NCBI GenBank assembly: GCA_002372275.1
Contig: DFFP01000009.1
Coordinates: 5,833 to 69,832 of the forward strand
DNA length: 64,000 bases
From: Alphaproteobacteria bacterium UBA3773
Lineage (GTDB): Bacteria > Pseudomonadota > Alphaproteobacteria > RF32 > CAG-239
Direction: 5' to 3'
Part shown: one piece after another, positions 5,441-32,409 of the stretch
Layout: every line of letters begins with the position of its first letter
Numbering within the stretch: the first letter of the stretch is position 1
Program-made: the position numbers and the translations under genes
Notes under the pieces: model-generated
Told to the model about the DNA's origin: nothing
Seen by the model: only the letters and a program-made list of their open reading frames with translations
Database searches by the model: none

Positions 5441-5787
5441 AAATGCCATTATGAGCATTTTTTTATCCTCGAGCCCTTTCGGGTTCGATTTCCACGGTAC
5501 AACATCAATAAACAAAAAAAAACACTCTTTGGGTGTTTCTTGTTTATTGGAGCAGACAACGGGAATATGTAGCTAAAGCTACTCGCTAATCAAAAATCTA
5601 AATTCGTTGCGGGCGTTTGCACACTTCCTTACTCATTAAAATTTTTGATCCTCTTGCGGTAAAAAATGCCATCTCGGGCATTTTTTATCCTCGAGCCCTT
5701 TCGGGTTCGATTTCCACTGTACAACATCAATAAACAAAAAAAACACCCTTTGGGTGTTCTTTGTTTATTGGAGCAGACAACGGGAAT
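5441..5787. repeat. Two-copy imperfect direct repeat (about 125 bp per copy, period 221 bp). It contains terminator hairpins and the last 19 nt of tRNA-Gly.
   Basis: 5441..5566 aligns with 5661..5787 at about 93% identity. Copy 2 continues into the intact tRNA. Copy 1 ends at ...tggagcagacaacgggaat and then diverges. Confidence 0.85.
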
Positions 5788-5842
5788 CGAACCCGCATTA
5801 AAAGCTTGGGAAGCTCTCATTCTACCATTGAATTATGTCTGC
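5769..5842 (-). tRNA. tRNA-Gly (anticodon CCC)
   Basis: Minus-strand read GCAGACATAATTCAATGGTAGAATGAGAGCTTCCCAAGCTTTTAATGCGGGTTCGATTCCCGTTGTCTGCTCCA. It has a 7-bp acceptor stem, a D-arm, anticodon loop TTCCCAA, a T-arm GGTTCGATTCC and a CCA end. Confidence 0.9.
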
Positions 5843-5892: not shown

Positions 5893-6537
5893 TTATATGA
5901 GCTTTTCTGTTTTAAAAGCAAATGATATTTTTCCGATGATTTTTAATTTTTTGAGACTGCAGGTTGTGCTTTGATACTTTGCGTTGTCTAAAATAACGGC
6001 ACACTCGGATGAGGATATTTGTTGCAGGCGGCGGACATGCCAGCCGTTTGGTAGCTCAATGAGATATAAGCCGTCTGAAGTTAATGAGTTAACAGATGTG
6101 TCAAGAAAAACATAATCGCCGTCTTTTAAGGTAGGAAACATGGAATCTCCCGTGATGCGAAACATCTTTGTTGTTTGAGCAGGGGCTGACGAAAAATTAG
6201 AAAAATCGGATAAAGGAATTGATAGGTAACCTGAAGTTTTTGCTTCAAAATTTTTTGTGGGGGCGAGAGAAATCAATTCAATCAAGGCTGATGATTTTGG
6301 ATCGGTATTATATGTCGATTTTGGAAGAATAATGTCGGTCAATTCTTGTTCTTCGACATCTAAAAGTTCAGCTAACTTGCGGCGCTCGCTTTCCGGTAAA
6401 CGTAAGGGAGAGCCTTTGTTAATAAATTGGTGTAAGTATGCCTCGTTTTTGCCGATGGCAAGCGAAAGAGAACGATAATTTTTGTTCTTTTCTTTGATTA
6501 ATGCGTCAATATGCGCGCGGATTTGGTCGATGTTCAT
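5893..6537 (-). CDS. Prophage CI/LexA-like repressor (HTH plus S24 peptidase)
   Basis: C-terminal GDSMFPTLKDGDYVFLD S24 autoprotease motif. The likely start is MNIDQIRAHID at 6537. Transcribed divergently from the early genes. Confidence 0.8.
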   Translation of the reverse strand: MNIDQIRAHIDALIKEKNKNYRSLSLAIGKNEAYLHQFINKGSPLRLPESERRKLAELLDVEEQELTDIILPKSTYNTDPKSSALIELISLAPTKNFEAKTSGYLSIPLSDFSNFSSAPAQTTKMFRITGDSMFPTLKDGDYVFLDTSVNSLTSDGLYLIELPNGWHVRRLQQISSSECAVILDNAKYQSTTCSLKKLKIIGKISFAFKTEKLI

Positions 6538-6665
6538 GAAGATTCTCCGGTTTTTATGAAGATATAAGATATCTATCATAAAAAAAATATCTGTGCAAAT
6601 AATAAATTTCTTATTGTATTTATAATAAAAATATCATATTTATCCAGGACGAAAGGAGAAAATAT

Positions 6666-7632: not shown

Positions 7633-8358
7633 ATGGTTGGAATTTTGGATATTTGTCGTTCGGCTGCGGATATAACGGCATCGCAGAGGCCGGATGATTT
7701 GTTTAGAGTTGATACGCAACATAATGCGATTTTTTTATCAATCGCCGAAAATGAATTGGAGAGTTTACTCAGGTATGGAAATTGGCCCGAATTGATTAAA
7801 GAAGGGCGTTTTAGAACACAGCCGAACAAAACTTATTATGCATTTGATCAAATTACTGCGGATTTCTATTGTTTAACCCATAATACGCTCTTTATTAAAG
7901 ACAGAAATGAACGCGTTTTAGGCTCATTCACGTATGAAGAAGCGATGCAAAGAAAGTATTTAAAAACTTCTTCGGGGGAACTTGAATTTAGAATTGAAAA
8001 TAACGGTTTGCGCTTTTTAAAAGCACCTCTGGCGAATTTGAGTGTTGTGTTTTTGTATCGCTCAAATACGATTTGCTATGACGCGGTGACAGGCGAAGAA
8101 AAATGCAAATTGGAAAAAAATGATGATGTGCCTGTGTTTGATCAGTATATCGTTAAACTCGGTATTATATGGAGATGGCTTAAGCGTAGCGGGATGGATT
8201 ATGCCCAGGAATATAACGATTATCAAAATGAACTGAAAAGAAAATATGCACTAACGCTTGAAACACATGATATTTCGCTTGTTAGCGGATATGAACCTTC
8301 AAGATTTAACAATACAATCAATTTATGTGTCGGTGGAGACGGGTATGACAGAAGTTGA
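7633..8358 (+). CDS. Phage protein, hypothetical (241 aa)
   Basis: ORF overlapping the portal-like gene start by 14 nt. No recognisable motif. Confidence 0.5.
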   Translation: MVGILDICRSAADITASQRPDDLFRVDTQHNAIFLSIAENELESLLRYGNWPELIKEGRFRTQPNKTYYAFDQITADFYCLTHNTLFIKDRNERVLGSFTYEEAMQRKYLKTSSGELEFRIENNGLRFLKAPLANLSVVFLYRSNTICYDAVTGEEKCKLEKNDDVPVFDQYIVKLGIIWRWLKRSGMDYAQEYNDYQNELKRKYALTLETHDISLVSGYEPSRFNNTINLCVGGDGYDRS

Positions 8359-10117
8359 AATTTGGATTGAAAAAATACGTCGATCGGAAAAAAAATATGC
8401 TGATTATTTTGATAAAATTAAAACGATACGTCGCTATTATAAAAATGAAAATTCAAGAAATAAACAAAATATTTTTTGGGCAACGATTGAAACCTTAAAA
8501 CCGTTCTTGTATTTTAAGGAACCGAAAGTATTTATCAAGCAAAAAGAAAAATCAGGGCCGCTTGCGCTTTCGGTCGCTTGTCGAATTTTAGAAAAAGCTT
8601 TGGCTTGGAATATGGAACAAATCGATTTTGACAGCGTGATGAAATATGTCAGAAACGACTTTTTGCTTTTTGGATTTGGGGCCGCTTTTGAAAGGTATGT
8701 GCCGACATTTAAGACGTGTCACGTCAATGAAAACGGACATGATGTTTCACTACAACTCTTAAAAGATGAAAAAATTGAAACGGTTTATATCCCTCCGGAA
8801 GATTTTTTGGCCGATACGGAAAAAGTCAATGTGTGGGAAGATTGCGGGTGGATTGCACGTAAAATCGTTATGAGTTTGTCTGAAATTCGCGCCCAATTCG
8901 GTGAAGAAATTTTTCAAAAAATTGTGCAAAAAAACGGTGCCGACAAAATGGACTCCATGACGGTTTATGAAATATGGGATAAGAAAAGTAAGCGTATTTT
9001 ATATTTGGCTTTGGAATTTGCGTTTGAATTTTTGAAAATCAAAGAAGATGCGTTCGGACTTGAAGGATTTTGGGCCTTTCCGAAACCGTTGTTTGGGACG
9101 CTCGCAAATGACGGGATTATTCCGACACCTGATTTTGACCAATTAAAGCCTCTGCTTGATGAACTCTCCGGTGTGACGGGACGTATGCAACTTTTGATGC
9201 AAGCCATGAAGGTCACAGGGGCATATGACAGCAGTTTTCCGGAACTTGCAAATATCTTAAATAAAGATGTGACATTGGTTGCATTGTCGGATTTTGAGCG
9301 TTTAAAAGAAAACGGCGGTATTAAAGGAGTTGTGGATTTCGCCCCGATTGAACAATATGTGTCGGCGTTAACTGTTTTGGCATCAAGACGCGAGGATATC
9401 ATGACACAAATTTATGATATGACCGGGGTCAGCGATATTATGAGAGGAATGTCGGATAAAACGGAAACGGCAACCGCAGTTGAGAAAAAAACGAACTTCG
9501 GGACACTTCGCAATCAGGACAGACAAAATGATATGGTGCGCTTGATGACAAACCTCTTTCAGATGAAAGCTGAAATGATTTGCAGTTGTTTTGATGCAGA
9601 GCACTTGAAAATGTTTGCAGATTCTGAAACGCCTGATGATGTTGTTCAAACAGCTATTCTAATCTTAAAAGAACAAAAATTACGCGGAATGATTTTGGGA
9701 GTGGAAACAGATACGGCATTTGCGCAAAGTCATATCTTAGAGCAAACGCAAAAAAGTATTTTAGCTGTGCATGGCTTGATTAAAGAGGCATTTGAAATGG
9801 TTTCGATTCAACCTTCGCTGTTGGGGCTGTATCGACAGATGATTTCGACACTTGTTTCGACGATGCCTTGCGCCAGACAATATGAGCCCGTGATGGAGAA
9901 AGTATTTGAACAAATTGATGAAGCTCTTCGTTTGCCGAGTCCGCCTACGCAAGATATTTTGGCCTTGCAGCTCAATCAGCAAAAACAAAAAATGTGGCTC
10001 GACTATGATATTAAAACTAAAGAACTCGCTTTGAAAAAAGAAGAGGTTGAAATCAAAAAAACGGAAGCACTTCATAAGGTTTGTGCCAAAGAACATACCT
10101 TAAAAACAAAGAAGTGA
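8345..10117 (+). CDS. Putative portal (head-tail connector) protein
   Basis: Size (about 590 aa), a position in the head module, and a coiled-coil-like C-terminal tail. This is an architectural assignment only. Start placed at the ATG at 8345. Confidence 0.45.
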   Translation: MTEVEIWIEKIRRSEKKYADYFDKIKTIRRYYKNENSRNKQNIFWATIETLKPFLYFKEPKVFIKQKEKSGPLALSVACRILEKALAWNMEQIDFDSVMKYVRNDFLLFGFGAAFERYVPTFKTCHVNENGHDVSLQLLKDEKIETVYIPPEDFLADTEKVNVWEDCGWIARKIVMSLSEIRAQFGEEIFQKIVQKNGADKMDSMTVYEIWDKKSKRILYLALEFAFEFLKIKEDAFGLEGFWAFPKPLFGTLANDGIIPTPDFDQLKPLLDELSGVTGRMQLLMQAMKVTGAYDSSFPELANILNKDVTLVALSDFERLKENGGIKGVVDFAPIEQYVSALTVLASRREDIMTQIYDMTGVSDIMRGMSDKTETATAVEKKTNFGTLRNQDRQNDMVRLMTNLFQMKAEMICSCFDAEHLKMFADSETPDDVVQTAILILKEQKLRGMILGVETDTAFAQSHILEQTQKSILAVHGLIKEAFEMVSIQPSLLGLYRQMISTLVSTMPCARQYEPVMEKVFEQIDEALRLPSPPTQDILALQLNQQKQKMWLDYDIKTKELALKKEEVEIKKTEALHKVCAKEHTLKTKK

Positions 10118-11951: not shown

Positions 11952-12184
11952 TGGAAAAAACATTGAAAGAAATATTGGAAAAAATGATGAGGAAAAAAAC
12001 AGTTCGAGAAAGAATTTGTGCTATGCTCATCGGAGAGGCTCAAAACGGGAATTTTAAGGCCTTGGACGCTATTAGAGATATTATAGGCGATAAAGATAAA
12101 TCGCATCGCGATGAGCCTGAGCCGGTGACAAATATCAAAATCGAGGTGATCGATGGGACGCATTATCAAAATCAAGATTGCTAA
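11948..12184 (+). CDS. Small phage protein, possibly the small terminase subunit
   Basis: 78-aa ORF immediately upstream of and overlapping TerL. The assignment rests on position only. Confidence 0.3.
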   Translation: MMEKTLKEILEKMMRKKTVRERICAMLIGEAQNGNFKALDAIRDIIGDKDKSHRDEPEPVTNIKIEVIDGTHYQNQDC

Positions 12185-13472
12185 GCCTTTTTTGCCGCTG
12201 ATCAGCACAAACAAAAGAATTAAATTGTATTGGGGCGGGCGCGGCGGCGGAAAGAGCTATGCATTTGCCGATGCACTTTTGCTTAAAGGGTTGGAGAAAA
12301 AACTTTTAATTGCATGCGTGCGTGAAATTCAAGACACAATTAAAGATTCCGTTCATCGCTTACTTTCAGACCGAATTGAATTTTATGACTTAAAAGAATA
12401 TGAAGTCAAAGAAAGCGAAATTGTAAATACCTTAAACGGGACACGCTTTATTTTTAAGGGTCTGCGCAATCAGGATGCACATAAAATTAAATCGCTTGAA
12501 GGCGTGGATATTGTTTGGATTGAGGAAGCCCAGACCATTACAAAAAAATCGTGGGAGATTTTGTCGCCGACCATTCGAAAAGACGGGTCGGAAATTTGGA
12601 TTTCGATGAACAGAGAAGAAGAAAATGATCCGCTTTGGGTGCTTTTAGGCAGCCATCAAGATGAGCGTACGCTCATTGAAAAAGTCAACTTTTATGATAA
12701 CCCTTTTTGTCCTGAAGAACTGAAACTGCAAGCCAAAGAATGTCTGGCTCATGATGAAAGCACCTATCGGCATATTTGGCTCGGAGAGCCGCTTTCTCAA
12801 GGGGCACACAAGTTGATTGATGCCGGACTTGTGAAACATGCAATGCAACCGAAAATTTCGGAAAGTACCTCGCCACTTATCATCGGGCTTGATGTGGCGC
12901 GTTTCGGAGATGACCAAACTGTTTTTTGCTTGCGCAAAGGGCGAAAATGTTTGTCTTTTTTATCTTTTGAAAAAAAAGATAATGTCGAAGTGGCAAATAT
13001 TGCGACAAATTTGATTGAAACAAAACGTCCCTTACGTATTTTTTTGGATGCAGGCGGTGTGGGCGGCGGTGTGTTTGATATCTTAAAAGACAGAGGTTTT
13101 AAGGATATCATAAGAGGTGTTAATTTCGGCTCTAAAGCGATTAATGAAGAGCGTTATGCCAACAGAAGAGCCGAAATGTGGGATCATCTGCGGCAATGGC
13201 TGACAGAAGAAGTCGAGTTGCCAAATAATGGTATGCTCTATGATGAATTGTGTACCGTGCGCAAAAAATATGATGCGCTTGGAAGACTCTTACTCGAAGA
13301 AAAAGAAGAAATAAAAAAAAGAATAGGGCGTTCGACCGATTGGGCAGATGCCCTCGCGTTGACTTTTGCAGAGCCTGTTTATGATAAAGGACACACCAGA
13401 TTTTATGGTAACGGGCAGGTTTGTTTGGAAGAAATGTTTCAGGCTTCAAATCAGCGTATGCCGGTGTGGTGA
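12153..13472 (+). CDS. Terminase large subunit
   Basis: Walker A YWGGRGGGKSYAFA, Walker B DIVWIEEAQ, and a C-terminal nuclease-like domain. Length 439 aa. Confidence 0.85.
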   Translation: MGRIIKIKIAKPFLPLISTNKRIKLYWGGRGGGKSYAFADALLLKGLEKKLLIACVREIQDTIKDSVHRLLSDRIEFYDLKEYEVKESEIVNTLNGTRFIFKGLRNQDAHKIKSLEGVDIVWIEEAQTITKKSWEILSPTIRKDGSEIWISMNREEENDPLWVLLGSHQDERTLIEKVNFYDNPFCPEELKLQAKECLAHDESTYRHIWLGEPLSQGAHKLIDAGLVKHAMQPKISESTSPLIIGLDVARFGDDQTVFCLRKGRKCLSFLSFEKKDNVEVANIATNLIETKRPLRIFLDAGGVGGGVFDILKDRGFKDIIRGVNFGSKAINEERYANRRAEMWDHLRQWLTEEVELPNNGMLYDELCTVRKKYDALGRLLLEEKEEIKKRIGRSTDWADALALTFAEPVYDKGHTRFYGNGQVCLEEMFQASNQRMPVW

Positions 13473-14555: not shown

Positions 14556-15539
14556 ATGACAGTCAATACAAATTATGATGCGATTTTTACAACAACAATT
14601 GAAAATCGCTCAAAAAAACTGGCCGATAATGTAACAAAAAATAATGCCTTGTTGCAAAGATTATCGGCAAAAGATAAAATCAGAACCGTAGACGGCGGCT
14701 CGAAAATTTTGGAAGAATTGGAGTATGGCAACGGTGATCTTGTATGGTATTCGGGATTTGATACAATTTCGTACAGCGGTCCGGAGCTCTTCTCGGCAGC
14801 CGAATATGCTTTGAAACTTTGTGCTGTTCCGGTAGCCGTTTCGGGTGAAGAAATGCTTAAAAACGCCGGCACTGAACGGATGATCGATTTGTTTGAAAAA
14901 CGTATTCAAAATGCCGAAAAAACAATGGCAAATAAAATTTCGGAAGCTCTTTATTCTGACGGCACAGGCAGCTCCGGTAAGGAAATCGGCGGTTTAAAAC
15001 TTTTGGTGGCGGATTCTCCTTCAACAGGAACAGTCGGTGGGATTAACCGTGCAACCACCGGAAACGAATTTTGGCGCAATCAATCAAGCGTTATTTCTTC
15101 TGCTGCCGGCGCACTTTCATCATCAACCATCTTAAAAAAAATGAATGATGTGTATTTGGCTTGTTCAAGAGGAACAGATAAGCCCGATTTGATTGTGACG
15201 GACGATTATTTATATGATATGTTTGAAAGTGCTTTGCAACCATCACAACGCTTTTGTGACCCGAAACTTGCCGACGCCGGATTTCAATGCTTGAAATATA
15301 AAGGCGCTGATGTGATTTTTGACGGTGGACAGGGCGGAAGTTGTCCTTCAAAGCATATGTATTTCTTAAATACGAATTATCTCTATTTAAGACCGCACAA
15401 AGATCGTAACTTTAAGGTTATCGGTGGCGAAAGACTTTCGATTAACTCTGATGCCATTTACAAAATCATCGGCTGGGCAGGAAATTTAACTATGTCTAAT
15501 GCTGCGCTTCAAGGTGTTCTCGTCGATTACATCGCTTAA
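14556..15539 (+). CDS. Major capsid protein
   Basis: 327 aa. Position after the scaffold gene, with a composition typical of HK97-fold coat proteins. Followed by a strongly structured repeat. Confidence 0.65.
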   Translation: MTVNTNYDAIFTTTIENRSKKLADNVTKNNALLQRLSAKDKIRTVDGGSKILEELEYGNGDLVWYSGFDTISYSGPELFSAAEYALKLCAVPVAVSGEEMLKNAGTERMIDLFEKRIQNAEKTMANKISEALYSDGTGSSGKEIGGLKLLVADSPSTGTVGGINRATTGNEFWRNQSSVISSAAGALSSSTILKKMNDVYLACSRGTDKPDLIVTDDYLYDMFESALQPSQRFCDPKLADAGFQCLKYKGADVIFDGGQGGSCPSKHMYFLNTNYLYLRPHKDRNFKVIGGERLSINSDAIYKIIGWAGNLTMSNAALQGVLVDYIA

Positions 15540-15540
15540 A

Positions 15541-15842
15541 AAACGCGTCTAGCTGGTATCTAATACAAAAAAGTCTGTTTGCGTTCGGTCGTGTACGAAT
15601 AAGTACACTCGTCTCACTCAAGCAGACTTTTCTTATTATATACGCACGCCATCCGTGTTTTTTTGCATTTATAGTGGAAGTTCTATTCTGCGCACCCTTA
15701 AAAAATGTTCGCTCTTTTGGTGAAAACGCGTCTAGCCGGTATCTAATACAAAAAAGTCTGTTTGCGTTCGGTTGTGTACGAATAAGTACACTCGTCTCAC
15801 TCAAGCAGACTTTTCTTATTATATACGCACGCCATCCGTGTT
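15541..15842. repeat. Two near-identical 119-bp tandem direct repeats (period 183 bp), each forming a long nested hairpin
   Basis: 15541..15659 and 15724..15842 differ at about 2 positions. Each copy has a 13-bp stem aaaagtctgtttg/caagcagactttt enclosing a gtgtac...gtacac hairpin. Confidence 0.9.
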
Positions 15843-15873
15843 ATGACGCTTTTTAGAAAAGGAGTATTCATCA

Positions 15874-16896
15874 ATGGCAAGAATGGATGAACAAACATAT
15901 AAAATCATACGTGGTATGAAAACAATTCAAAGACAGCACCCTCAAAAAGGGGAGAGTAAGTGGTATTATTTGGATCCGCGGGGTGCAACAAGAATAGCCG
16001 ATATGGGGGTGATAGACGTTGAAAGTGAGTATGCGCCTAACCCTTATGCAAGAGAAATTTTAATAGATGATATGAAACGCCATGAAGAAGATTATTATAT
16101 TTGGCGGACAAAAGGTGATGAAAAAGTAAGGGCCAGTCATGAAGAGCGTGAAGGAAAAGTTTATAATAGAAATTTGCCGCCTGATGGGGGTAATCCGGGA
16201 GAAGAACATAACTGCAGGTGTTGGGAAGAGGAATTTAAGTTTGAGAAGATGAAAAATGTTGATATGATTGATCTATTGGAAGAAATTGGTGCAGAATTAT
16301 CAGATGATGAGTTATATGACCGAATGTGGGAGAATATTAAAAGATTTGAAGATATTAAAACGTATCCATACCTTGACACAAAAGGATTAATTACAATTGG
16401 TGCCGGTGCAAATGTAAACAATTTGGATGTTTTTTTGAGTTTAAATTTGACAGTCAACGGATTTTCGGCAACAAGAGAACAAAAGTTAGAAGCATATAAA
16501 CAGTTGAAATGGTTGAGTGAACAAAAAGATGAGAAAGGAATGTATCTATATTATAATAGAAGAGCAAAATTTTTTGAAAAAGAAACAAATGTCCGTTTAC
16601 CTGATGTAGAAATACGGCAATTAGCACAAAGGCATATGACAAGTGATTTAAAACATTTGCGGCAAGAATTTGAAAGTTTTGACGAATTTCCTTTACCGTT
16701 AAAAGAAATATTACTGGATATTCAATATAATGTCGCAGGTGGATTGAGTGAAAAAAAATGGCCGAAGTTATACAGAGCTATACGTCAAAAAGATATGTTA
16801 GGCAAAGAAGGAATTGCAGAAAATGTGAATAGGCCGGATGTCGGAAAAAGTCGTAATGATTGGGCAAAAGGAATGGCGCGTTCAATCAGATTCTAA
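15874..16896 (+). CDS. MuF-motif minor head protein fused to a GH24 phage-lysozyme domain
   Basis: N-terminal region carries DEKVRASHEEREGKVY...PGEEHNCRCW, the C-terminal signature of the Phage_Mu_F/gp7 domain. The C-terminal region carries FEDIKTYPYLDTKGLITIGAGA, matching the T4-lysozyme E...D...TIGxG motif. Confidence 0.6.
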   Translation: MARMDEQTYKIIRGMKTIQRQHPQKGESKWYYLDPRGATRIADMGVIDVESEYAPNPYAREILIDDMKRHEEDYYIWRTKGDEKVRASHEEREGKVYNRNLPPDGGNPGEEHNCRCWEEEFKFEKMKNVDMIDLLEEIGAELSDDELYDRMWENIKRFEDIKTYPYLDTKGLITIGAGANVNNLDVFLSLNLTVNGFSATREQKLEAYKQLKWLSEQKDEKGMYLYYNRRAKFFEKETNVRLPDVEIRQLAQRHMTSDLKHLRQEFESFDEFPLPLKEILLDIQYNVAGGLSEKKWPKLYRAIRQKDMLGKEGIAENVNRPDVGKSRNDWAKGMARSIRF

Positions 16897-17319
16897 TTTA
16901 TCGGGAGGTGTGACGCAATATATATCATTTGCAAACTCCTGTTCTTGTGTGTAGTCTTCCCATATATCAAAGTCATTTTCTGCTATTCTTAAACAATCTT
17001 GCGTAATCCGTTCTGTTATTTTAAAAACAAAATATTGTTTAGGACCTTTTTTATCGGGATTATGCCAATACAAATCACATAAAAGAGTGATACGATTTTG
17101 GGTGTTTTCAATAAGTTGACAGTCTCCGGTCATAGCTACCAGATTGTCATCTAAAGGAGTTCGGCTATCAATAGATGTGGGGGTAATGTATGTTAAAGTA
17201 GAGCTTCTGCCTAAAGGCTTCAGAGGCTGATTAAAAATAGGATTAACAAACTGCTCCTTAGCGTTTGCGGTCAAAATAAAAAGAAAAACAAAAATGAAAA
17301 GAAAGAACATTTTTTTCAT
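16882..17319 (-). CDS. Secreted moron protein (signal peptide, Cys-containing), paralog A
   Basis: MKKMFFLFIFVFLFILTANA signal peptide. Shares the C.LIEN...LLC motif and a conserved upstream sequence with 17720..18139. Confidence 0.6.
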   Translation of the reverse strand: MKKMFFLFIFVFLFILTANAKEQFVNPIFNQPLKPLGRSSTLTYITPTSIDSRTPLDDNLVAMTGDCQLIENTQNRITLLCDLYWHNPDKKGPKQYFVFKITERITQDCLRIAENDFDIWEDYTQEQEFANDIYCVTPPDKLESD

Positions 17320-17354
17320 TCATTATACCTCGCTTTAAAGATTCTATATAGGGT

Positions 17355-17726
17355 TTGTTAAAATATGATAAAGGAAATTATGTAAATCATAATAAACGAG
17401 CGACAGCTTTTATTAATGATAGCCCTTTGCGAATTTCAAAAGAGTATATGATTGAACGGATGATGAATCATTTAAGAGAAGATTTAAAACGGGCAAAATC
17501 TAAAAGGAAAGATTTTGATACATACCCAACTCCATTAAAACTTATTATATTAGATTTTTATTATAATAAAGGTAGTTTTTATAATCAACCAGGATTACCT
17601 CAAGCATTAGATGAACGAAATGCGATATTATTTCAAGAAAAAATGGTAAGACATATGAGAGATAGAGATGAATGGACGCAACGACAATTTAACCGTATAA
17701 ATCAAAATTTTTGGAAAATTTATTGA
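17355..17726 (+). pseudogene. Lysozyme C-terminal fragment, a remnant of a module duplication
   Basis: The ORF uses a TTG start inside the repeated promoter sequence. Its product aligns only with the C-terminal half of the lysozyme domain of 15874..16896 (PLKxIxLDxxYN) and lacks the catalytic N-terminus. Confidence 0.5.
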
Positions 17727-18139
17727 TAAGGAGGAATAGTTATTAAACCATCATTTGTGAGGATTTCCTCAAAAATTATGTTTCCAAGATTATCGTAAAT
17801 TTTATGATTAATAATGTATTGTTCCGGTGTCGTTTGGTCTTTTGTTAAAGAAAAAGAGTGATTTGTATTTGTGTGAGATGTACATTCAAGGTTAAGGCAC
17901 TCATTACAAAGCATTTTTATATAAGATTCTTGATTTTCAATAAGAGAACAAGGAATATTTAAGGTAATATTGTTTCGCGAATTTTCATAATATTTCGAAC
18001 TTGGTGTTAAAACATAAAATGCTTCTTTGTCAGAAGTTACTAATTTTTGATAGAAAACAGGATGTAAAAAAAACGTTTTAGTTTGAGCATAAGCATTGAT
18101 GCTCACAATAAAAATGAAAAGAAAGAAAAATTTTTTCAT
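17720..18139 (-). CDS. Secreted moron protein, paralog B
   Basis: MKKFFFLFIFIVSINAYA signal peptide. The same 45-bp upstream element (agattctatatagggtttgttaaaatatgataaag) occurs at 17322..17380. Confidence 0.6.
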   Translation of the reverse strand: MKKFFFLFIFIVSINAYAQTKTFFLHPVFYQKLVTSDKEAFYVLTPSSKYYENSRNNITLNIPCSLIENQESYIKMLCNECLNLECTSHTNTNHSFSLTKDQTTPEQYIINHKIYDNLGNIIFEEILTNDGLITIPPYQ

Positions 18140-18204
18140 CTATGACACCTCGCCTTAGAGATTCTATATAGGGTTTGTTAAAATATGATAAAGAGGGGAT
18201 GAAT

Positions 18205-18453
18205 TGTATGAGCTGTTTTTTTGATTTTGATTGACAATTTTTGTAAATTGTGCCATCCTTAAAATAAGGCAGGGTGGTATCTGCCCCGAGGATTAGAACC
18301 CTCTCACTCGTTGCTAATGAAAGCGTAAAATTTCCTTCCGGTTAAGGCTGGAAGGAGGCTAATAATCGATTATTGAAAATATGCCCGCTATTTCGAGTGA
18401 ATAGGTTCTAACTTCCAGTCGCCTTACCAAGGCGAATTTTTTTATGGAGGCAT
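18205..18453 (+). promoter_or_regulatory. Structured 5' leader with an intrinsic terminator just upstream of the RBS (attenuator- or riboswitch-like)
   Basis: TTGACA at about 18229. Long-range helix ggattagaacc...tcactcg/cgagtga...ggttctaa. Hairpin ccttccggttaaggctggaagg. Terminator cgccttaccaaggcg plus a T8 run ending at 18445. The gene's ATG is at 18454. The antiterminator candidate ggctggaag/cttccagtc overlaps the terminator. Confidence 0.5.
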
Positions 18454-19176
18454 ATGATGAAAAAAATATTTATTATCGGGATATTCAGCTTTATGATTAA
18501 TTTTTCTGCACATGCAGAAATTATAATAGGTTCGGATTGCAATAATAAATGTACTTGGTTTTATGATACGCAAACGCAAGATTTAAGAATTGCTCCAAAT
18601 GCAGGCGCATCAGGGGATTTAGTTGTTGGAAATGGTGGTTCATCTTTTGGAGGTATCACAATCAACAATGTGACAATTGAAGAAGGAATTACAGGTTTTA
18701 ATGCTAACAGATTTAACACGGGGATGGGAACAGGATATACAGGAAAAGGAACATTAAAACTGCCGGAAAGTTTGAAGATGACAACAGCATCCGGAAATAT
18801 AGATTTGGCTTTTCAAGCTCTTGATTTGACGGCGACAAATTTGCAAAGCGTCGATTCACTGTCTATACGGCGTTTGCAAAATGTTATCTTAACACCTAAA
18901 GAAGGTTTTGTATTTCCGAGTAATTTTTTGGGAAGATGGAGAAACAGTAAATATACCGGTGCTTATATTGAAGGGGATATCACTATTCAGTGCCGCGGGG
19001 AAATGGCGCTTTGTGAGCAAATGATGGCTAAAGTGAAAGAATACGAAAATAGTCTCGGGGTTGATTTTTTTGTTCGTTATTTTGATAATAGAAAACGCCG
19101 AATTTATACGATTGACGAGGCTGTTGAGGCTCTGGGTAAGAATAATAAAAATACGTTTAGGTTAAAGTATCGGTAA
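18454..19176 (+). CDS. Secreted protein, paralog of 30952..31809 (conserved KRRIYxIDEA...KNxxTFxLKYR C-terminus)
   Basis: Signal peptide MMKKIFIIGIFSFMINFSAHA. Shares a GS[DE]C...CT[WY].YD N-terminal motif and the C-terminal about 25 aa with the ORF at 30952..31809. Confidence 0.7.
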   Translation: MMKKIFIIGIFSFMINFSAHAEIIIGSDCNNKCTWFYDTQTQDLRIAPNAGASGDLVVGNGGSSFGGITINNVTIEEGITGFNANRFNTGMGTGYTGKGTLKLPESLKMTTASGNIDLAFQALDLTATNLQSVDSLSIRRLQNVILTPKEGFVFPSNFLGRWRNSKYTGAYIEGDITIQCRGEMALCEQMMAKVKEYENSLGVDFFVRYFDNRKRRIYTIDEAVEALGKNNKNTFRLKYR

Positions 19177-19400
19177 GGGAAAAAATAAGGAAAAATCGCC
19201 TTTGAAAGCGCAAAAGCGCGGGCGATTAAGCTCAGATCCCTTAATGACCTGACGCGCCGCGCAGGTCAAGGGATGACAGGGTAAGGTGAAGATGCCTGAC
19301 GCTTTGCTTTTGGCATTACCGGTATGACAGAAAAGAGGATGGCGGTTTCAATATTTTATGTGCACGCTGAAATTTTTTTTAGCGTGTTTTTTTAATACTA

Positions 19401-19961
19401 ATGAAAGGAAAGAAAATGAGCGTTGAATTTTCAATGTTTCAAAGTGCGGTCAGTTCGCAAAATACAAATAACGGTGTTTTTGCAAGGTTTTATGATCGGT
19501 ATGTTAAAACAGGCGAGATGTTAAAAAACGGATTGCCGGAATTTAAAACAAAACTTTATGTCGAAATCAAGGTTAAAGATCAATATGACGTTTTTGATCA
19601 GCCGGCAGAAGAAATACACATCAGGCGTTTTCCAAAAGCGTATGAAATGTATTTACATGAGAAAAAAGAATTACAAAGCGGTACGCCGCTTTTTTTGTTT
19701 GCTTTTTTGGATCAGGGACAAATTGAAACATGTCGGTTTCGGGGAATATATACCGTTGAAAAATTAGCTTCGTTGAATGATTTGGATGCAAAAAATTTGG
19801 GGCTTGAAAAAGAAAAAAAATTGGCACTGAAATTTTTGAAAGCCTCTCAAAATAATCTGGCTGTTTTAAAAGCACAAAATAAAGAAGAATACTACTTGGC
19901 GGAAATTCAAAAACTCAAAGATGAAATTTCGGAGCTGAAAAAAAATGCCGTCCAAATGTGA
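19401..19961 (+). CDS. Phage protein, hypothetical (C-terminal coiled coil)
   Basis: 186-aa ORF whose 3' end overlaps the GNAT gene. Confidence 0.45.
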   Translation: MKGKKMSVEFSMFQSAVSSQNTNNGVFARFYDRYVKTGEMLKNGLPEFKTKLYVEIKVKDQYDVFDQPAEEIHIRRFPKAYEMYLHEKKELQSGTPLFLFAFLDQGQIETCRFRGIYTVEKLASLNDLDAKNLGLEKEKKLALKFLKASQNNLAVLKAQNKEEYYLAEIQKLKDEISELKKNAVQM

Positions 19962-20385
19962 GATTATTTCGGATTTATCAGGCGAAGTGGTGCACTTTGT
20001 GTGTCGGGGATTAAATGAAAATGAAGATTGGGTGGGGCAAAATATTACGCTCGGCATCAAATTAAATCATGAGTTAATTGCAGGAATTATTATCAACGAT
20101 ATCAGAGCAGGTCTTGATTGTTGGCTCACCATTTTTTCGTGCGATAAGAGGTGGTGCAACAAAAGAGTGCTGAGGGCCGTTTTTGATGTGGTTTTTGATT
20201 TTTTAAAATGCAAGCGCGTCGGGGTTATGGTTGATGTTCAAAATGCCAAAAGCCGGACATTGGTCGAGAGGCTCGGATTTCAAAAAGAAGGAATTTTGCG
20301 CGCCTTCTTAAATAACGGACATGATGCGCTGATTTATTCAATGTTAAAAAAGGAATGTCAATGGAGGACAAAAGATAATGAGTAA
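19945..20385 (+). CDS. GNAT-family N-acetyltransferase
   Basis: LVERLGFQKEGILRAF is the acetyl-CoA-binding motif A of GNAT enzymes. Length 146 aa. Confidence 0.7.
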   Translation: MPSKCEIISDLSGEVVHFVCRGLNENEDWVGQNITLGIKLNHELIAGIIINDIRAGLDCWLTIFSCDKRWCNKRVLRAVFDVVFDFLKCKRVGVMVDVQNAKSRTLVERLGFQKEGILRAFLNNGHDALIYSMLKKECQWRTKDNE

Positions 20386-21058
20386 AAGTTTAAACGTTTT
20401 CAGTAAGGTAGGTAATGGTTTGAAAGTTGGCTATAACAGTCAACCGACAAACGATTTTTTGAATTACTTAAATAATTATAATACTTCAAATGTGGATCAT
20501 ACCTTAAACAATTTAACAAGCTGGGCATCAAGGGCCAGCGATAATTTGCAAAATATGGGCGGGTATACATTTCAGATTGACGGCTCGGAAGATTTGAAAA
20601 ATAATATCACAAATGCAATGTATCAAAATTATTTAAGTAAACTTTTGCCGCAATATGAAGCCGAGCAAAATGATTTGCAAACAAGGCTCTTAAATCAGGG
20701 ATTGGGGGTGAATACTGCCGCCTATCAAAATGCGATGAATAATTTGGTATCGGCTCAAAACGGGGCCTTAAATGATGCGATTTCAGAGGCAGTTAATGCC
20801 GGAAATACGGCATATAACAATGATATTCAAAATCAAATAGCTATTGGAAATTTTCAAAATAATGCGGCGCAAAATTATATCAATTTATTGCTTTCGGCGC
20901 TCGAAAATTCGCTCAGCTCTTATGATGTGGCACAAAATAAATATGAGGCCGGAAATAATTTATCGGCAGCGCAAAGCAAAGCGCAAAATCAATCGGTTCA
21001 AAATCAATTAAAGGCTATTAAGATTGCTGCGGATACGGCAAAATCTTTGTGGAGCTAA
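20378..21058 (+). CDS. Asn/Gln-rich phage tail-associated protein
   Basis: Low-complexity N/Q/A-rich 226-aa ORF immediately upstream of the tail-collar fibre gene. Confidence 0.4.
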   Translation: MSKSLNVFSKVGNGLKVGYNSQPTNDFLNYLNNYNTSNVDHTLNNLTSWASRASDNLQNMGGYTFQIDGSEDLKNNITNAMYQNYLSKLLPQYEAEQNDLQTRLLNQGLGVNTAAYQNAMNNLVSAQNGALNDAISEAVNAGNTAYNNDIQNQIAIGNFQNNAAQNYINLLLSALENSLSSYDVAQNKYEAGNNLSAAQSKAQNQSVQNQLKAIKIAADTAKSLWS

Positions 21059-21069
21059 AGGAGGATAAA

Positions 21070-21828
21070 ATGGCTTTTGACAGTGAGGGTAATTTTACAC
21101 GTTTGCATAATTGGGAAAATGATAGATTAAACGATATTGCAATTATTGCAGACAGACACGATGAAGAAGATAACGGCTTTGCACAAGGGTTAAATGAGTG
21201 TTTTTTAAGAGATGGTCGTGTGAGCCTTTCAGGTTCGCTTAAAATGGGAGATCATCAGATTAAAAATTTGGCACCGGCAACTGTTTCAACAGATGCCGTG
21301 AACAAGGCTCAGCTTGAAAATGCATCATCCAATGTGACTGAGGCTTTAACAATTTTGCTCAATAAACTTTTTAAGATCGGCGATATCAAAGCCTCAACAA
21401 GGGCAGCTAATCACGATCACTGGTTTTTGTGTAACGGGCAGGCCATCTCTCGAACAGCGTATTCACAATTGTTTGCACTTATCGGAACAAATTTTGGGGC
21501 AGGTGACGGGACAACAACATTTAATTTGCCGGATTATAGAGGAAAATTTTTGCGCGGCCTTGGCGGGGATTCTGAAGCTGATATTTATACAACCCAAGCC
21601 GAGGGACTACCTAATATTACGGGTTCAGCTTATGTTTATTCGAGAGTGAGCGGTGAGGGCGCTTTTGAAGGTAGCAATAATCAGGCTGGCGGTATTGATA
21701 ATAATGGTTCAGGTAATAAAACTCTTTCATTTGATGCCTCGCGTTCATCAGCGATTTACGGAGCATCAGAGCATGTGACGCCCATCAACCAGGCCGTCAA
21801 TTATTTTATAAAAGTTTTGGAGGAATAA
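21070..21828 (+). CDS. Tail fibre protein with a phage tail-collar domain
   Basis: TTFNLPDYRGKFLRGLG matches the tail-collar motif (FxLPDLRGRF). RBS aaggagg before the ATG at 21070. Confidence 0.75.
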   Translation: MAFDSEGNFTRLHNWENDRLNDIAIIADRHDEEDNGFAQGLNECFLRDGRVSLSGSLKMGDHQIKNLAPATVSTDAVNKAQLENASSNVTEALTILLNKLFKIGDIKASTRAANHDHWFLCNGQAISRTAYSQLFALIGTNFGAGDGTTTFNLPDYRGKFLRGLGGDSEADIYTTQAEGLPNITGSAYVYSRVSGEGAFEGSNNQAGGIDNNGSGNKTLSFDASRSSAIYGASEHVTPINQAVNYFIKVLEE

Positions 21829-21829
21829 T

Positions 21830-22189
21830 ATGACAGGTGTGATTAGAGAAAATGGCAATTTAATTGAAGTCAGGCAAGGGGACAGTTTTGAAATCGACAT
21901 TTGTATCTGTAAAGAAAATGAAAATGTAGATTTAACAGGCGCGACCATAAAAATGCAATGTCGTCAAAAAAGTGATGATGCACTTGTATGGAGCTTAACC
22001 GGCACAGCAGTTGATGTTTTGCATGGGAAAATTTCGCTGATTTTAACACCTGAAAATACTTCGATTGATGTTGGGGATTATAAAACGGATATTGAGGTTC
22101 GATTTTCAGATGGGACAGTTCATACGATTTTTCCGCAGGATGTAAATAAAATCGGAACACTTCGGATAACTGAGCAGGTGACAAAATGA
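21830..22189 (+). CDS. Phage tail-associated protein, hypothetical
   Basis: 119-aa ORF within the tail-fibre cluster. Confidence 0.4.
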   Translation: MTGVIRENGNLIEVRQGDSFEIDICICKENENVDLTGATIKMQCRQKSDDALVWSLTGTAVDVLHGKISLILTPENTSIDVGDYKTDIEVRFSDGTVHTIFPQDVNKIGTLRITEQVTK

Positions 22190-23046
22190 GAATAAAAGAT
22201 GAGAGTGCTCAATTAAATGCGGATCTATCATCAAAAAGTGAGATTATGGTTGATATTAAACCTCAACAAGCTTTTGAGATTGTGTGGCGTGAAGGTGCAC
22301 AAATAGATGTTAAAACCGCATTAAAATATATTAAGTCCGGTGAAAAAGAAATTGATGAATATGTTCAAACATCACTTGAAAGCGCCTTAGAAGCTAAGCA
22401 AGATGTAATCGAAGATTTAGAAAATATCAGATCGGGGGCAAATTTAGGAATAACTTCAGTTCAACCTTCTGATTTGATACTTGCGCTTGAGCAAAAACAA
22501 GACACACTTGTTTCAGGAACGAGTATTAAGACAATCAACAATCAATCTTTATTGGGAAGTGGTAATATTGATATTCAAGAAAGTGGAGCGGTTGACAGCG
22601 TCAATGGTAAAACAGGAACTGTTGTTTTAAGTACAAATGACTTAACAAATGACAGCGGATATATTACAACTTCGGCATTGGCACCTTATGCTTTATCATC
22701 AAGTCTTGCAAGCGTTGCTTTAAGCGGCGATTATGATGATTTGATTAACAAACCCGGTTTTATGCCTGATTACAGCGCAGGAGTAAGTGTTTCTACATCT
22801 CAAGGAAATACATATACGGTTCCTGCAGATGGTGTTATTAAAGCGAAAATAAATTGGAGTGGCTCAACGGTTCTTGATATACGTGAAAATAATAGTAGTG
22901 GAGAACAACTGATTTATTGTTGGCAACAAAACAACAACGGTTCAACTTGTTATATACCTGTCTCAAAAGATATGGTTCTTTATTTTACCGAAAGAAATGG
23001 TGCAGATGTTCAGTTTTATCCATACAAAGGAGTTCAAAATGCTTAA
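22186..23046 (+). CDS. Tail fibre protein
   Basis: VNGKTGTVVLSTNDLTNDSGYIT fibre-repeat motif. Position next to the tail-collar fibre. Confidence 0.6.
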   Translation: MRIKDESAQLNADLSSKSEIMVDIKPQQAFEIVWREGAQIDVKTALKYIKSGEKEIDEYVQTSLESALEAKQDVIEDLENIRSGANLGITSVQPSDLILALEQKQDTLVSGTSIKTINNQSLLGSGNIDIQESGAVDSVNGKTGTVVLSTNDLTNDSGYITTSALAPYALSSSLASVALSGDYDDLINKPGFMPDYSAGVSVSTSQGNTYTVPADGVIKAKINWSGSTVLDIRENNSSGEQLIYCWQQNNNGSTCYIPVSKDMVLYFTERNGADVQFYPYKGVQNA

Positions 23047-23389
23047 ATACGCAAAAATATCAGAAGAACAAACAAAAAAATGTGATGTTGGTTTAGGTTC
23101 TAATATAGCTTTTTATAAATCTATCGGTATGACAGAGATGGATGTTGAACAAGCCTATAACGGGCAGTGGTATGTGAAAGGATATGCACCGTTAAAACCT
23201 GAGCCGACAGATGAAGAACAAAAACAAAAAAGAGCGGCAGCTTATCAAGCAGAAGTTGACCCGATAACGGCACATATTCAAAGGCTTCGTGATGAAGAGG
23301 GAGAGGAAGAAAAAATCAAAGAGCTTATTGAACAGCGCAAACAAAAAGTCGAGGAAATTAAAGAGCGCTACCCTTATAAAGGAGAATAA
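23039..23389 (+). CDS. Putative tail-fibre assembly or chaperone protein
   Basis: Small acidic ORF directly downstream of and overlapping the fibre gene. Confidence 0.35.
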   Translation: MLKYAKISEEQTKKCDVGLGSNIAFYKSIGMTEMDVEQAYNGQWYVKGYAPLKPEPTDEEQKQKRAAAYQAEVDPITAHIQRLRDEEGEEEKIKELIEQRKQKVEEIKERYPYKGE

Positions 23390-23392
23390 ATA

Positions 23393-23668
23393 ATGAACGA
23401 TATTAAGATACTTTGGTTTATTGTGATGGCGGCGATTGTTTCCGCCATTTTGCGTTTTAAAAACATAACTCAGCTCTGCTTTGACGGATTGCTCGGTTTT
23501 GTGATGGGCTATTCTTTTTATCTGCTCTTGGGTTATTGGATTGCAGATGGGGCAACAAGGGCCGGCTTTACGGGGGTGATTATTTTATGTTCACGCCCGT
23601 TATATGACGGGCTTAATCACATTCTTTCAAGCAGGCTTGAAGATTTATTGGAACGGTATTTAAGATAA
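23393..23668 (+). CDS. Putative holin
   Basis: 91 aa with 2 to 3 predicted transmembrane segments, immediately upstream of the spanin pair. Confidence 0.5.
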   Translation: MNDIKILWFIVMAAIVSAILRFKNITQLCFDGLLGFVMGYSFYLLLGYWIADGATRAGFTGVIILCSRPLYDGLNHILSSRLEDLLERYLR

Positions 23669-23895
23669 TGAAACGTTTGCTCTTTTTATTTTTAAGTGTT
23701 TCGTGTTTGTGCCTTTTTTCGTATTTGGCGGGATATAATAGAGCGTTCCAAAAAATGAAAAATGCACATATCAAAGAGCTTGAACAAAAAACTGAGGTGA
23801 TTAAAAATGAAAATCAAAAACGCGCTCAAATATGGGCTCAGCCTCATGCTTTACATCATGAGCTTATCGGGTTGTTCCTGCAAAACAAATTATGA
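23668..23895 (+). CDS. i-spanin (Rz-like)
   Basis: N-terminal transmembrane segment plus a coiled coil. ATGA overlap with the holin stop. Confidence 0.6.
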   Translation: MKRLLFLFLSVSCLCLFSYLAGYNRAFQKMKNAHIKELEQKTEVIKNENQKRAQIWAQPHALHHELIGLFLQNKL

Positions 23896-24049
23896 GTATT
23901 GCCCCGTTTATCCTTTGGGTGGCGAAAAGGTCGGGCATGAACTTGAAAAACTAAACGGGGAAGAATTTGAAGCCACATTTGAGTGGATAGCCAGAATAAA
24001 TAAACTAAGGCTTGAGCTTGAAGAATGTCAAAATAAACAAATGAAATAA
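23807..24049 (+). CDS. o-spanin (Rz1-like lipoprotein) overlapping the i-spanin out of frame
   Basis: Lipobox LSGC, a second Cys, and a start embedded in the Rz-like gene in a different frame. The true start may be the internal Met at 23849. Confidence 0.6.
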   Translation: MKIKNALKYGLSLMLYIMSLSGCSCKTNYEYCPVYPLGGEKVGHELEKLNGEEFEATFEWIARINKLRLELEECQNKQMK

Positions 24050-30951: not shown

Positions 30952-31809
30952 TTAACGATATTTTATCGAAAATGTGTTTTTACCTTCGGTGACGGCCGTT
31001 GCTTCATCAACACGATAGATGCGGCGTTTGGATCCATCGGCCATGAATGAACCTAAGAAATTTCCGTCTCCATCATATTTTTTATAGTCACCATTTGCTA
31101 AATACTTGTAGGAATAAGTCTTTTTGCCGTTTTCATCCCATATTTCTATTGGATTTCCGTTATTATCATACCCAATATAATATTCATAAGTTACGTTAGT
31201 ATTTCTGTTCTTTATCATGCTTTGACATTTTTGTATATCACCGCGACATTTGACTTGAATATGTTCAGGAAAACCCCAATTATTAGAATCATTACCATTA
31301 ATAAAACGTTCTATCGTATAATTCATATTATCAGATGCGGTTATAATTAATGTATGGGAGTTCGTCATTCCTAAAGGCATATATACTGTTTGTTCAGAAG
31401 TATTAGGAGAAACTTCAATGGTTCCGAAATTATTATCCCAAATTACAGGCAAATAGTTGCCCCACGTGGTGTGAACAAAGGTACTTGGAATTTTGAGTAT
31501 ACCATCACTGGTTCCCCAACCCATAGTAAATCCAACTGTAGCTCCCGTAATTCCTTCATTAATAATGAGATTTTTTACCAGCATTCCTTTTTTTTGCATA
31601 TATTCAAAAAAATCGTAACCTCCACCTCCGTTCGCTCGTGCTCCTGTTATATCACCGGTGCCGGAAAAGGTCATAGTATAAGTTTCCGAATCATATTCAT
31701 AAGTGCAAGTCCCGTGACATTCTGATCCGGTATATTTTTCTGCCCATGTATTTGCTGTCAATATGCTGTAACATAAAGAACATGATGCCAATAAAATAAA
31801 CTTTTTCAT
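30952..31809 (-). CDS. Secreted protein, paralog of 18454..19176
   Basis: Signal peptide. GSECHGTCTYEYDSETY N-terminal motif and C-terminal KRRIYRVDEA...KNTFSIKYR. Confidence 0.7.
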   Translation of the reverse strand: MKKFILLASCSLCYSILTANTWAEKYTGSECHGTCTYEYDSETYTMTFSGTGDITGARANGGGGYDFFEYMQKKGMLVKNLIINEGITGATVGFTMGWGTSDGILKIPSTFVHTTWGNYLPVIWDNNFGTIEVSPNTSEQTVYMPLGMTNSHTLIITASDNMNYTIERFINGNDSNNWGFPEHIQVKCRGDIQKCQSMIKNRNTNVTYEYYIGYDNNGNPIEIWDENGKKTYSYKYLANGDYKKYDGDGNFLGSFMADGSKRRIYRVDEATAVTEGKNTFSIKYR

Positions 31810-32150
31810 GAGTGTTCTCCTTATATTTTTCTGAGATTCCGAAACAAGTTCGGAATGACAATAGAGTTAAAAAAACCGCCCAATCAGGCGGTCGGAGAGT
31901 TGAACAATCATGTTAGGTGAAATGACTCTTTTGGCCTTTAGGAATACCTTGTACATTCGCCAAAAGCTCCCCGACCAACTGGATATCGGGGATAAATATG
32001 CATTCCTTTTAAAAATAAAAAGGACAGCACATATTGCAGTGTTATCCGGCACTGCACCTAACAAAGAGCTGTTCAAAGCTCCGCGCCTTATTTCAGGCAC
32101 TTGATATATTTCTATACCATGTCATCATATTAACATTTTTTATAAAAAAT
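31810..32150 (-). promoter_or_regulatory. Long structured leader with an intrinsic terminator about 60 nt upstream of the start of 30952..31809
   Basis: Minus-strand promoter TTTACA-N17-TAATAT (about 32140..32110). Stem-loops gcagtg/cactgc, ccccga/tcgggg and cttttggc/gccaaaag. Terminator ccgcctgattgggcgg plus a T7 run at about 31870..31895, then a further hairpin before the RBS. Confidence 0.5.
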
Positions 32151-32205
32151 GTAAAGAAAAAAACCGTCTTGTGTGTGGCAAGGCGGTTTTTTTAGTTTTA
32201 AGAGG

Positions 32206-32409
32206 TTATAAAATTTCGATATTTCCGGCAGCAATACGTCCGCGGTCATCATATGGTTCATAACTGACGCGTTGGCCGTCAATTAAGCGTCTTAAACCCT
32301 TTTCTTCAAGTTTTGTGATATGCACAAAAATGTCTTTGCCTCCTTTTTCAGGTTCAATAAAACCATATCCTTTGCGCGTATTAAACCATTTTACAGTTCC
32401 GGTCGTCAT
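32206..32409 (-). CDS. cspA: Cold-shock protein (CspA family)
   Basis: GTVKWFNTRKGYGFI RNP1-like motif. Bidirectional terminator downstream. Confidence 0.9.
   Translation of the reverse strand: MTTGTVKWFNTRKGYGFIEPEKGGKDIFVHITKLEEKGLRRLIDGQRVSYEPYDDRGRIAAGNIEIL

Follow-up and report, generated by a model that had tools for sequence, protein, structure and literature searches.

A structured leader RNA family that ends in an intrinsic terminator, predicted upstream of secreted-protein genes in uncultured Alphaproteobacteria

On the minus strand of a 64,000-nt stretch of contig DFFP01000009.1, from Alphaproteobacteria bacterium UBA3773 (the whole stretch is called the window here, and its positions serve as coordinates throughout), the interval between cspA and the gene for a 285-aa signal-peptide protein encodes a structured RNA with compensatory-substitution support, the covariation being decisive. 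Judged by comparative sequence analysis, this RNA, termed Type A, represents a previously undescribed, lineage-restricted family of structured leader RNAs. The original prediction for this interval had listed a promoter, three stem-loops, a terminator followed by seven T residues, a further small hairpin, a ribosome-binding site (RBS) and an ATG at 31809, all of which are present on the minus strand (Table 1). It had also argued that the terminator does not serve cspA; this holds, as cspA has a terminator of its own at 32188..32157 and the downstream one (31893..31869) is therefore not cspA's. The element is a genuine leader: its own promoter stands on one side, the secreted-protein gene on the other, and its end is a conserved intrinsic terminator.

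The 257-nt transcript has a minimum free energy (MFE) of −100.7 kcal/mol, compared with −63.2 for shuffled sequences (z = −8.0; 0 of 200 shuffles were equally stable), and the opposite strand, at −86, is 14.7 kcal/mol less stable. The overall fold consists of a 5'-terminal hairpin, a second hairpin (P0), a long-range helix of about 25 bp (P1) that closes a five-way junction with hairpins P2, P3, P4 and P5, and the terminator, so that P1, the variable P3, P0 and the 5'-terminal hairpin are added to the three stem-loops first described. Covariation was measured on an alignment (A5) of 11 sequences, in which standard pairs fill 93% of cells and 31 of the 64 pairs have changed on both sides. In a shuffle control, 0 of 500 alignments matched the observed values on any of five measures, and when the 3' partner was slid by 1–3 columns, pairing reached only 38–46%.

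P1 and P5 covary almost everywhere, with compensatory changes at 14 of 21 pairs in P1 and at all eight outer pairs of P5 (97.7% of cells paired), while P4 and the four pairs at P1's foot hardly vary. P5 also encloses a conserved internal loop, GAAUGUWCA/CUAAAG, and a short inner helix. The stem sequence of P4 is invariant beneath a hypervariable loop (97% paired; five of seven pairs without any variation), and the most divergent copy, at locus L041, shows a compensatory A-U to C-G change there. P2 is 98.5% paired, with three pairs compensated in copy L020b, and P0 is paired in 97% of cells, with compensatory changes at two pairs; in L039 the equivalent of P0 is GCGCCA/UGGUGC. P3 is a hairpin in every copy, though its length and sequence vary. 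At the two ends, the 5'-terminal hairpin is 79% paired over the 11 copies (compensatory changes at 2/6 pairs) and the terminator helix 89.5% paired, with one compensated pair. Within P1, AUGAUU and CUCC of the 3' strand are nearly invariant, and the 5' strand can alternatively fold as a local hairpin, GGAGCU/AGCUCU (95.5% paired, two compensated pairs). Many of the conserved G-U pairs are possible on the minus strand only, and the structure is therefore that of an RNA on the predicted strand.

The almost invariant P2 loop, GGAUAA, is complementary to UUAUCC in J3/4 (31995..31990); this pairing is conserved in the A5 copies and is compensated in L020b and L039 (GGAUAU:AUAUCC), and it may form a tertiary contact or pseudoknot. 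A second candidate, between the P0 loop and J5/1 (GAAAU:AUUUC), was rejected because it is missing in L022a, L022b and L020b.

The terminator abuts P1 with zero linker. With eight pairs, five of them GC, ahead of its U-tract, it classes as intrinsic (Rho-independent), and both stem and U-tract are kept in 13/13 copies while the loop is free to vary. The syntenic relative L003 has the same promoter sequence as the window copy; wherever this position was read in the other copies, a −10 hexamer stands exactly 8 nt ahead of the 5' hairpin, and L004, L006 and L005b have a perfect TTGACA-N17-TATAAT. This fixed spacing, together with consensus promoters, implies that transcription begins at the hairpin and probably proceeds at a high rate. 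Taken alone, consensus scans of the window performed no better than chance (14 promoters found for 11.8 expected, three terminators for 2.3).

Table 1 Features of the Type A locus in the window, listed in the direction of transcription (TSS, transcription start site; ORF, open reading frame; REP, repetitive extragenic palindromic).
Feature	Position	Strand	Basis or remark
cspA stop	32206	−	precedes the element
cspA's own terminator	32188..32157	−	upstream of the element promoter
Sigma70-type promoter, TTTACA-N17-TAATAT, with TG extended −10	32155..32127	−	promoter scan; predicted TSS ~32120
5'-terminal hairpin, GGUAUA-GAAA-UAUAUC	32118..32103	−	MFE fold
P0 hairpin, GUGCCU-GAAAUA-AGGCGC, bearing the AUAAGGC motif	32100..32083	−	covariation
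P1 5' strand, GGAG..UUGAACAG..GUUAGGU	32082..32056	−	pairs with 31918..31894
P2 hairpin, GCAGUG/CACUGC, GGAUAA loop almost invariant	32055..32036	−	covariation
P3 hairpin, variable length	32034..31996	−	alignment and folds
J3/4 UUAU and P4, UCCCCGA/UCGGGGA	31995..31968	−	covariation
P5 outer stem, CUUUUGGC/GCCAAAAG (DNA: CTTTTGGC/GCCAAAAG)	31966..31928	−	covariation
Junction J5/1, AGUCAUUUC, conserved	31927..31919	−	UCA..U invariant or nearly so in 11 copies
P1 3' strand, ACCUAAC-AUGAUU-GUUCAA-CU-CUCC	31918..31894	−	pairs with 32082..32056
Intrinsic terminator, GACCGCC-UGAUUG-GGCGGUU + U7	31893..31869	−	terminator scan
REP-like palindrome, GUCAUUCCGAA..UUCGGAAUC (small hairpin GTCATTCCGAA..TTCGGAATC), spacer	31859..31835	−	
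RBS, AAGGAG	31822..31817	−	
ATG of ORF 30952..31809 (285-aa signal-peptide protein)	31809	−	ORF list

We found 13 copies of Type A at 12 independent loci, spread over one viral contig and three or more related Alphaproteobacteria, all uncultured. Loci were reached through homologues of the 285-aa protein, and further diverged copies through nhmmer profile searches of all fetched loci; besides the window copy they are L003, L004, L006/L007, L005 (two copies), L020 (two), L022 (two), L030, L041/L040 and L039. The last of these is the viral copy (IMGVR_UViG_3300029734_000183, 3110-3364(−)), whose closest relative is the L020 copy at 19212-19474, ahead of the SNase homologue described below. Neighbouring genes for a Tim44-like protein, SecB and CarD, together with the source names of related proteins, place the host in an uncultured clade of Alphaproteobacteria, and one matching contig, AUXO015074941, comes from the sheep rumen metagenome AUXO01, whose source study also presents gene-expression data (PMC4158751). 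Relatives of AccA in this clade show 70–91% identity. Pattern searches with the 5' motif AAGTGNCTGAAANAAGGCNCGGAG gave no match in GTDB representatives or IMG/VR and only AUXO015074941 in JGI metagenomes, with a pattern too strict for the divergent L022 and L041 copies; TCGGGGNGC-N8-GAATGTNCANGG, equally too strict for these, gave nine matches in GTDB, all by chance, so that absence from GTDB is not established.

Conservation of the RNA exceeds that of the neighbouring genes compared. At the syntenic locus L003, where cspA, the element, a homologue of the window protein and accA follow one another, the RNA differs from the window copy by one substitution outside the terminator loop, whereas identity is 90% in the coding sequence of cspA, 86% in accA and 80% in the hypothetical gene upstream. 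Purifying selection acts much more strongly on the RNA than on the adjacent housekeeping genes. The downstream ORF is only 62.5% identical in DNA and 43% in amino acids, and only the last ~65 codons align, which suggests cassette-like exchange of, or diversifying selection on, the secreted proteins. The stretch AAGGAGAAC..ATG is conserved in relatives.

Every copy (13/13) is followed, 11–180 nt downstream and in the same orientation, by an ORF with an N-terminal signal peptide, the constant placement ahead of a related gene set that is expected of a cis-regulatory 5' leader. The other neighbours vary by copy and include cspA/accA, groEL/dnaN, SLT/FGase, recG, sufD and tRNA pseudouridine synthase genes, among others. 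The linked ORFs are of three kinds: members of the window protein's family; BspA-type leucine-rich repeat (LRR_5) proteins, which share a Cys-rich N-terminal motif and a C-terminal tail with that family; and two secreted nucleases, namely a homologue of staphylococcal nuclease (SNase) behind L020b and, at L039, a phospholipase D (PLD)-like protein with an HKD motif and a signal peptide. In L020b the RBS lies about 2 nt past the U-tract (within ~14 nt), and in L020a about 20 nt past it, so that there is no room for a promoter of the ORF's own and the ORF must be transcribed through the terminator. We infer from this spacing that leader and ORF are co-transcribed.

The 285-aa window protein itself has only a handful of close homologues, and its predicted structure (AlphaFold, pLDDT 73.8) had no significant fold match in the PDB; the only functional hints are its LRR_5 relatives and a C-terminus of beta-hairpin repeats. 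A C-terminal tail, (K/R)RIYT(V/I)(D/E)EA...KNTF(S/K)(I/L)(K/R)Y(R/K), is common to ORF 30952..31809, to ORF 18454..19176 elsewhere in the window and to about 18 related proteins, whose middle parts are unrelated or consist of LRR_5 repeats; in the subfamily of the window protein, YD-like beta-hairpin repeats precede it. This tail is a candidate sorting or anchoring signal.

Type A matched no known RNA family. Rfam 15 searched over the whole window at the gathering threshold returned two tRNAs only, and with permissive settings neither 31700-32300 nor the two L022 copies gave anything significant on the RNA strand. All weak plus-strand matches in 32100-32200 are due to the cspA terminator (32160-32195), which is flanked by an A-tract and a T-tract on opposite sides and looks bidirectional. 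Membership of sRNA-Xcc1 (RF02221), to which both leaders of the window (see below) gave weak cmscan matches, failed for Type A, at 20.0 bits (E = 0.79; 31882-31976(−)) against a gathering score of 53, and the architecture is different.

We lean, with moderate confidence, towards reading Type A as a cis-acting attenuator that is off by default and gates the secreted-protein gene. A strong sigma70 promoter of its own would drive the leader; by default most transcripts would end at the terminator, giving a stable RNA of about 250 nt, and the downstream gene would be expressed by read-through only, presumably raised by a trans-acting factor or ligand that recognizes the invariant loops and junctions. 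Of the earlier proposal that this gene family is condition-regulated by premature termination, only part is supported: read-through is the sole evident route to the ORF (at L020b), but we can only infer that termination is partial and conditional, and no convincing antiterminator accompanies it.

Several observations weigh against such an attenuator. No convincing, conserved antiterminator that excludes the terminator was found among the Type A copies. The candidate that came nearest pairs the P4 3' arm plus 2 nt, (GG)UCGGGGAG, with CUCUCCGA(CC), that is, the foot of P1 and the first 2–4 nt of the terminator stem. It is 92.7% paired; just one of its positions varies, and there both partners have changed in two copies, from A-U to U-A in L006 and to U-G in L022b. 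The four segments that it draws on are the invariant ones, which would fit two pairing partners for each. However, it crosses P1, costs +12 to +24 kcal/mol relative to the MFE fold, overlaps the terminator by just 2–4 nt and in L041 is down to 6 bp with no terminator overlap, and we regard this helix as a weak hypothesis. P0, P1 and the terminator also abut without linkers, which resembles a self-contained stable RNA and not a typical riboswitch expression platform. Finally, one protein superfamily is served by four types of leader (described below), which speaks against one small-molecule aptamer.

A strong promoter followed by a strong terminator predicts an abundant, free-standing terminated RNA just as directly. 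The leading alternative, which we hold to be possible though not probable, is that Type A is primarily the gene of an independent, abundant, trans-acting small RNA (sRNA), with the downstream gene receiving incidental leak-through, or with a dual function. Consensus-strength promoters and strong terminators predict a highly expressed, discrete RNA of ~250 nt, the junction of P0, P1 and terminator is compact and linker-free, and nucleotide conservation is near-perfect, above that of the neighbouring cspA. There is also a precedent in Bartonella, where nine structured Brt RNAs (Brt1-9) of ~200 nt each lie just upstream of a poorly transcribed paralogous trp gene (trp1-9), with both cis and trans roles proposed (PMC5387305). 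Against an sRNA gene stand the 13/13 copies that hold their orientation and adjacency to a signal-peptide ORF while the other neighbours all differ, and L020a and L020b, where the ORF, lacking space for an independent promoter, depends on the leader transcript; no candidate target complementarity was identified.

Among published systems, Brt/Trp comes closest in function. Like Type A, the Brt RNAs belong to Alphaproteobacteria, are multi-copy, lineage-specific and highly structured (~200–250 nt), lie just upstream of a member of a paralogous family, have a terminator-like end and have been proposed to act both as cis attenuator or riboswitch and as sRNA. The resemblance is functional and architectural only; Brt is reported to be Bartonella-specific (PMC5387305). 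The genes downstream also differ, being secreted LRR proteins and nucleases here and helix-turn-helix (HTH) regulators in Bartonella, and the leaders here, unlike Brt, come in at least four structurally distinct types.

A riboswitch of a new class, for a small molecule or second messenger, with the five-way junction as aptamer and the terminator as expression platform, seems to us rather unlikely. In its favour are invariant nucleotides of the riboswitch kind (GGAUAA, UUAUCCCCG, G.AUGU.CA, CUAAAG and UCAUUU) set among freely covarying helices; these nucleotides cluster in loops and junctions (GGAUAA, UUAUCCCCG, GAAUGUWCA/CUAAAG and UCAUUUC); the possible GGAUAA:UUAUCC pseudoknot, with one compensatory event, and the invariance of P4 and of the P1-base segments also speak for it, such invariance being expected if each segment has two pairing partners. 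Riboswitches for cyclic di-GMP (c-di-GMP) offer a parallel in favour of such a reading, as they occur in several copies per genome ahead of surface and secreted proteins; c-di-GMP-I and c-di-GMP-II are transcriptional riboswitches with many copies upstream of surface-protein genes, and in Type A, too, an intrinsic terminator follows a conserved multi-helix fold whose junction nucleotides are invariant, and there are several copies per genome. Unlike them, Type A has no Rfam match and no clear alternation of terminator and antiterminator, and the taxonomic range seen so far is very narrow. Nor would a single ligand readily explain why the same gene family in the same genomes is served by four structurally different leader types, and the regulated genes give no metabolic clue.

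A constitutive structural 5' untranslated region (UTR), stabilizing the mRNA or insulating its transcription behind a leaky terminator with no switch, is improbable. The 5'-terminal hairpin starts 1–2 nt from the predicted TSS, a hairpin at the extreme 5' end is typical of 5' stabilizers, and no antiterminator was found; but a GC-rich stem of 7–8 bp plus U7 in every copy would be costly if only a stable mRNA were needed, and a complex junction with invariant unpaired nucleotides exceeds the needs of stabilization.

Lambda nut sites, rrn boxA/boxB and classical attenuators likewise place a promoter-proximal hairpin ahead of a terminator that needs read-through; unlike these, Type A has neither a conserved boxA nor a leader peptide. 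A leader peptide was rejected because indels in P3 break the frames and because the one frame that starts with AUG is not kept (from AUGAUU it ends after three codons in L004, and L006 has CUG in place of the AUG). An antitermination site with P0 as boxB and AGCUCUUUG as boxA, at which Nus factors or an N-like protein would bring about read-through, is very unlikely. In its favour, P0 (GCCU-GAAAUA-AGGC) resembles lambda boxB, and one leader lies in a prophage and another in a viral contig. The window copy of the putative boxA, GCTCTTTGTTA, agrees at 9 of 11 positions with the gamma-proteobacterial consensus GYTCTTTAANA, in which C4 and T6 are critical (PMC5725501). Conservation is lacking in this stretch: L004, L006, L020a, L030 and L022a have T at position 4, and the 3' half, being part of the covarying P1, is free to vary. 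The P0 loops differ in L022a and L022b, and Nus/boxA complexes are reported chiefly to counter Rho-dependent termination. Least probable of all is that the element works as DNA, for example as inverted repeats that belong to an invertible or mobile element: although P1 is a long imperfect inverted repeat around ~150 bp and leader-plus-gene modules differ among genomes at the same slot, many conserved G-U pairs and the greater stability are confined to the transcribed strand, the internal hairpins covary, promoter and U-tract set a polarity, and no recombinase is associated.

Type A is not the only leader of this layout. A second one in the window, Type B (18205..18453(+)), precedes a paralog (18454..19176) that is 25% identical to the window protein. 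Type B is conserved at two further loci, L008 and L030, with covarying helices; Type C occurs at L005 and Type D at L004, L020, L025, L029 and L040, with nine compensated pairs. All four types are laid out alike, with a promoter, a 5' hairpin, several hairpins enclosed by a long helix, a terminator and an RBS, and Types B–D precede the same protein superfamily as Type A. As had been predicted, ATAAGGC follows soon after the promoter in both leaders of the window (32091..32085 and 18264..18270); the motif occurs 11 times in the window for ~7 expected, and AUAAGGC or a near match is present in at least one member of each type. The proposal of a shared regulatory logic for the paralog pair survives in this limited form: the layout is common to both, and stands upstream of many relatives as well, but the two RNAs are not the same, since profile searches detected no sequence homology between Type A and Type B beyond the architecture and ATAAGGC.

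Type B came closer than Type A to sRNA-Xcc1, scoring 31.6 bits at 18346-18428(+) (351-nt search, E = 8.5e-4), still short of the gathering score of 53. It shares the outline of that family, a closing stem GGCUGGAAGG/CUUCCAGUC round two hairpins, and RNAalifold on three Type B copies selected an sRNA-Xcc1-like closing stem, GGCUGGAAG/CUUCCAGUC. A pattern scan of IMG/VR for Type B gave six matches, all in unrelated coding sequence.

At the cspA–accA slot of a more distant metagenome-assembled genome (GCA_017475525.1), a Type D leader (L040 6600-6775(−)) and a 467-aa LRR_5 gene take the place of the Type A module, and leader and gene are therefore exchangeable as a unit. Between L029 and L020 (9740-11059), from two assemblies, identity is 98% for the Type D leaders and 97% for the downstream HlyIII gene but only 23.5% for the LRR proteins encoded between them; here the leader forms the conserved 5' edge of an ORF that can be replaced. 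The proteins behind the leaders are among the fastest-changing in the genome, at 23–43% identity between strains with flanks 82–97% identical.

Together, these results identify a new, well-supported RNA family, with hints of three more, that is absent from Rfam and belongs to a clade without a cultured representative. What stands out is the combination of strong covariation, extreme conservation beside hypervariable secreted-protein genes, four parallel types and no obvious switching mechanism. If the leaders gate transcription, they would define a regulon of surface and secreted effectors and offer a route to the signal that induces it; even if they are merely abundant RNAs that end at the terminator, metatranscriptome mapping has a clear target in them. 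More speculatively, and we would not press the idea, Types A–D could be new RNA sensors, either riboswitch classes or targets of one dedicated antiterminator; on a signal from a host or a protist they would jointly switch on the whole secretome of hypervariable BspA-type LRR proteins and secreted nucleases in an uncultured clade of rumen Alphaproteobacteria, and the terminated leaders might also serve in trans as abundant RNAs.

As the original prediction had it, the paralog lies in a prophage, being surrounded by genes for a CI-like repressor, portal, terminase and major head protein. The prophage spans 5893-24000, with the CI-like repressor at 5893..6579, portal at 8258..10117, an amidase, the large terminase at 12153..13472 and the major head protein at 14556..15539; a tRNA (5772..5842(−)) stands at its left edge. 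Type B leader and paralog (18205..19176) sit within it like a cargo (‘moron’) gene. Nearby, a near-identical stretch of ~36 nt, ctttatcatattttaacaaaccctatatagaatct, occurs at 17338-17373 and 18158-18193 (−), ahead of the small signal-peptide ORFs 16882..17319 and 17720..18139, and may be a duplicated promoter or 5' region, unlike the structured leaders.

Palindromes of the form (C/T)GTCAYY...RRATC lie between terminator and RBS in varying number and sequence (L004 2885-2985; L006 2936-2975; L005 200-290 and 5630-5670; L022 9830-9960 and 13225-13330; also L030), and L020a and L020b have none. The palindrome in the window spacer is probably an optional insertion outside the RNA core, and as a group these palindromes look like small mobile insertions that favour the spot just past terminators.

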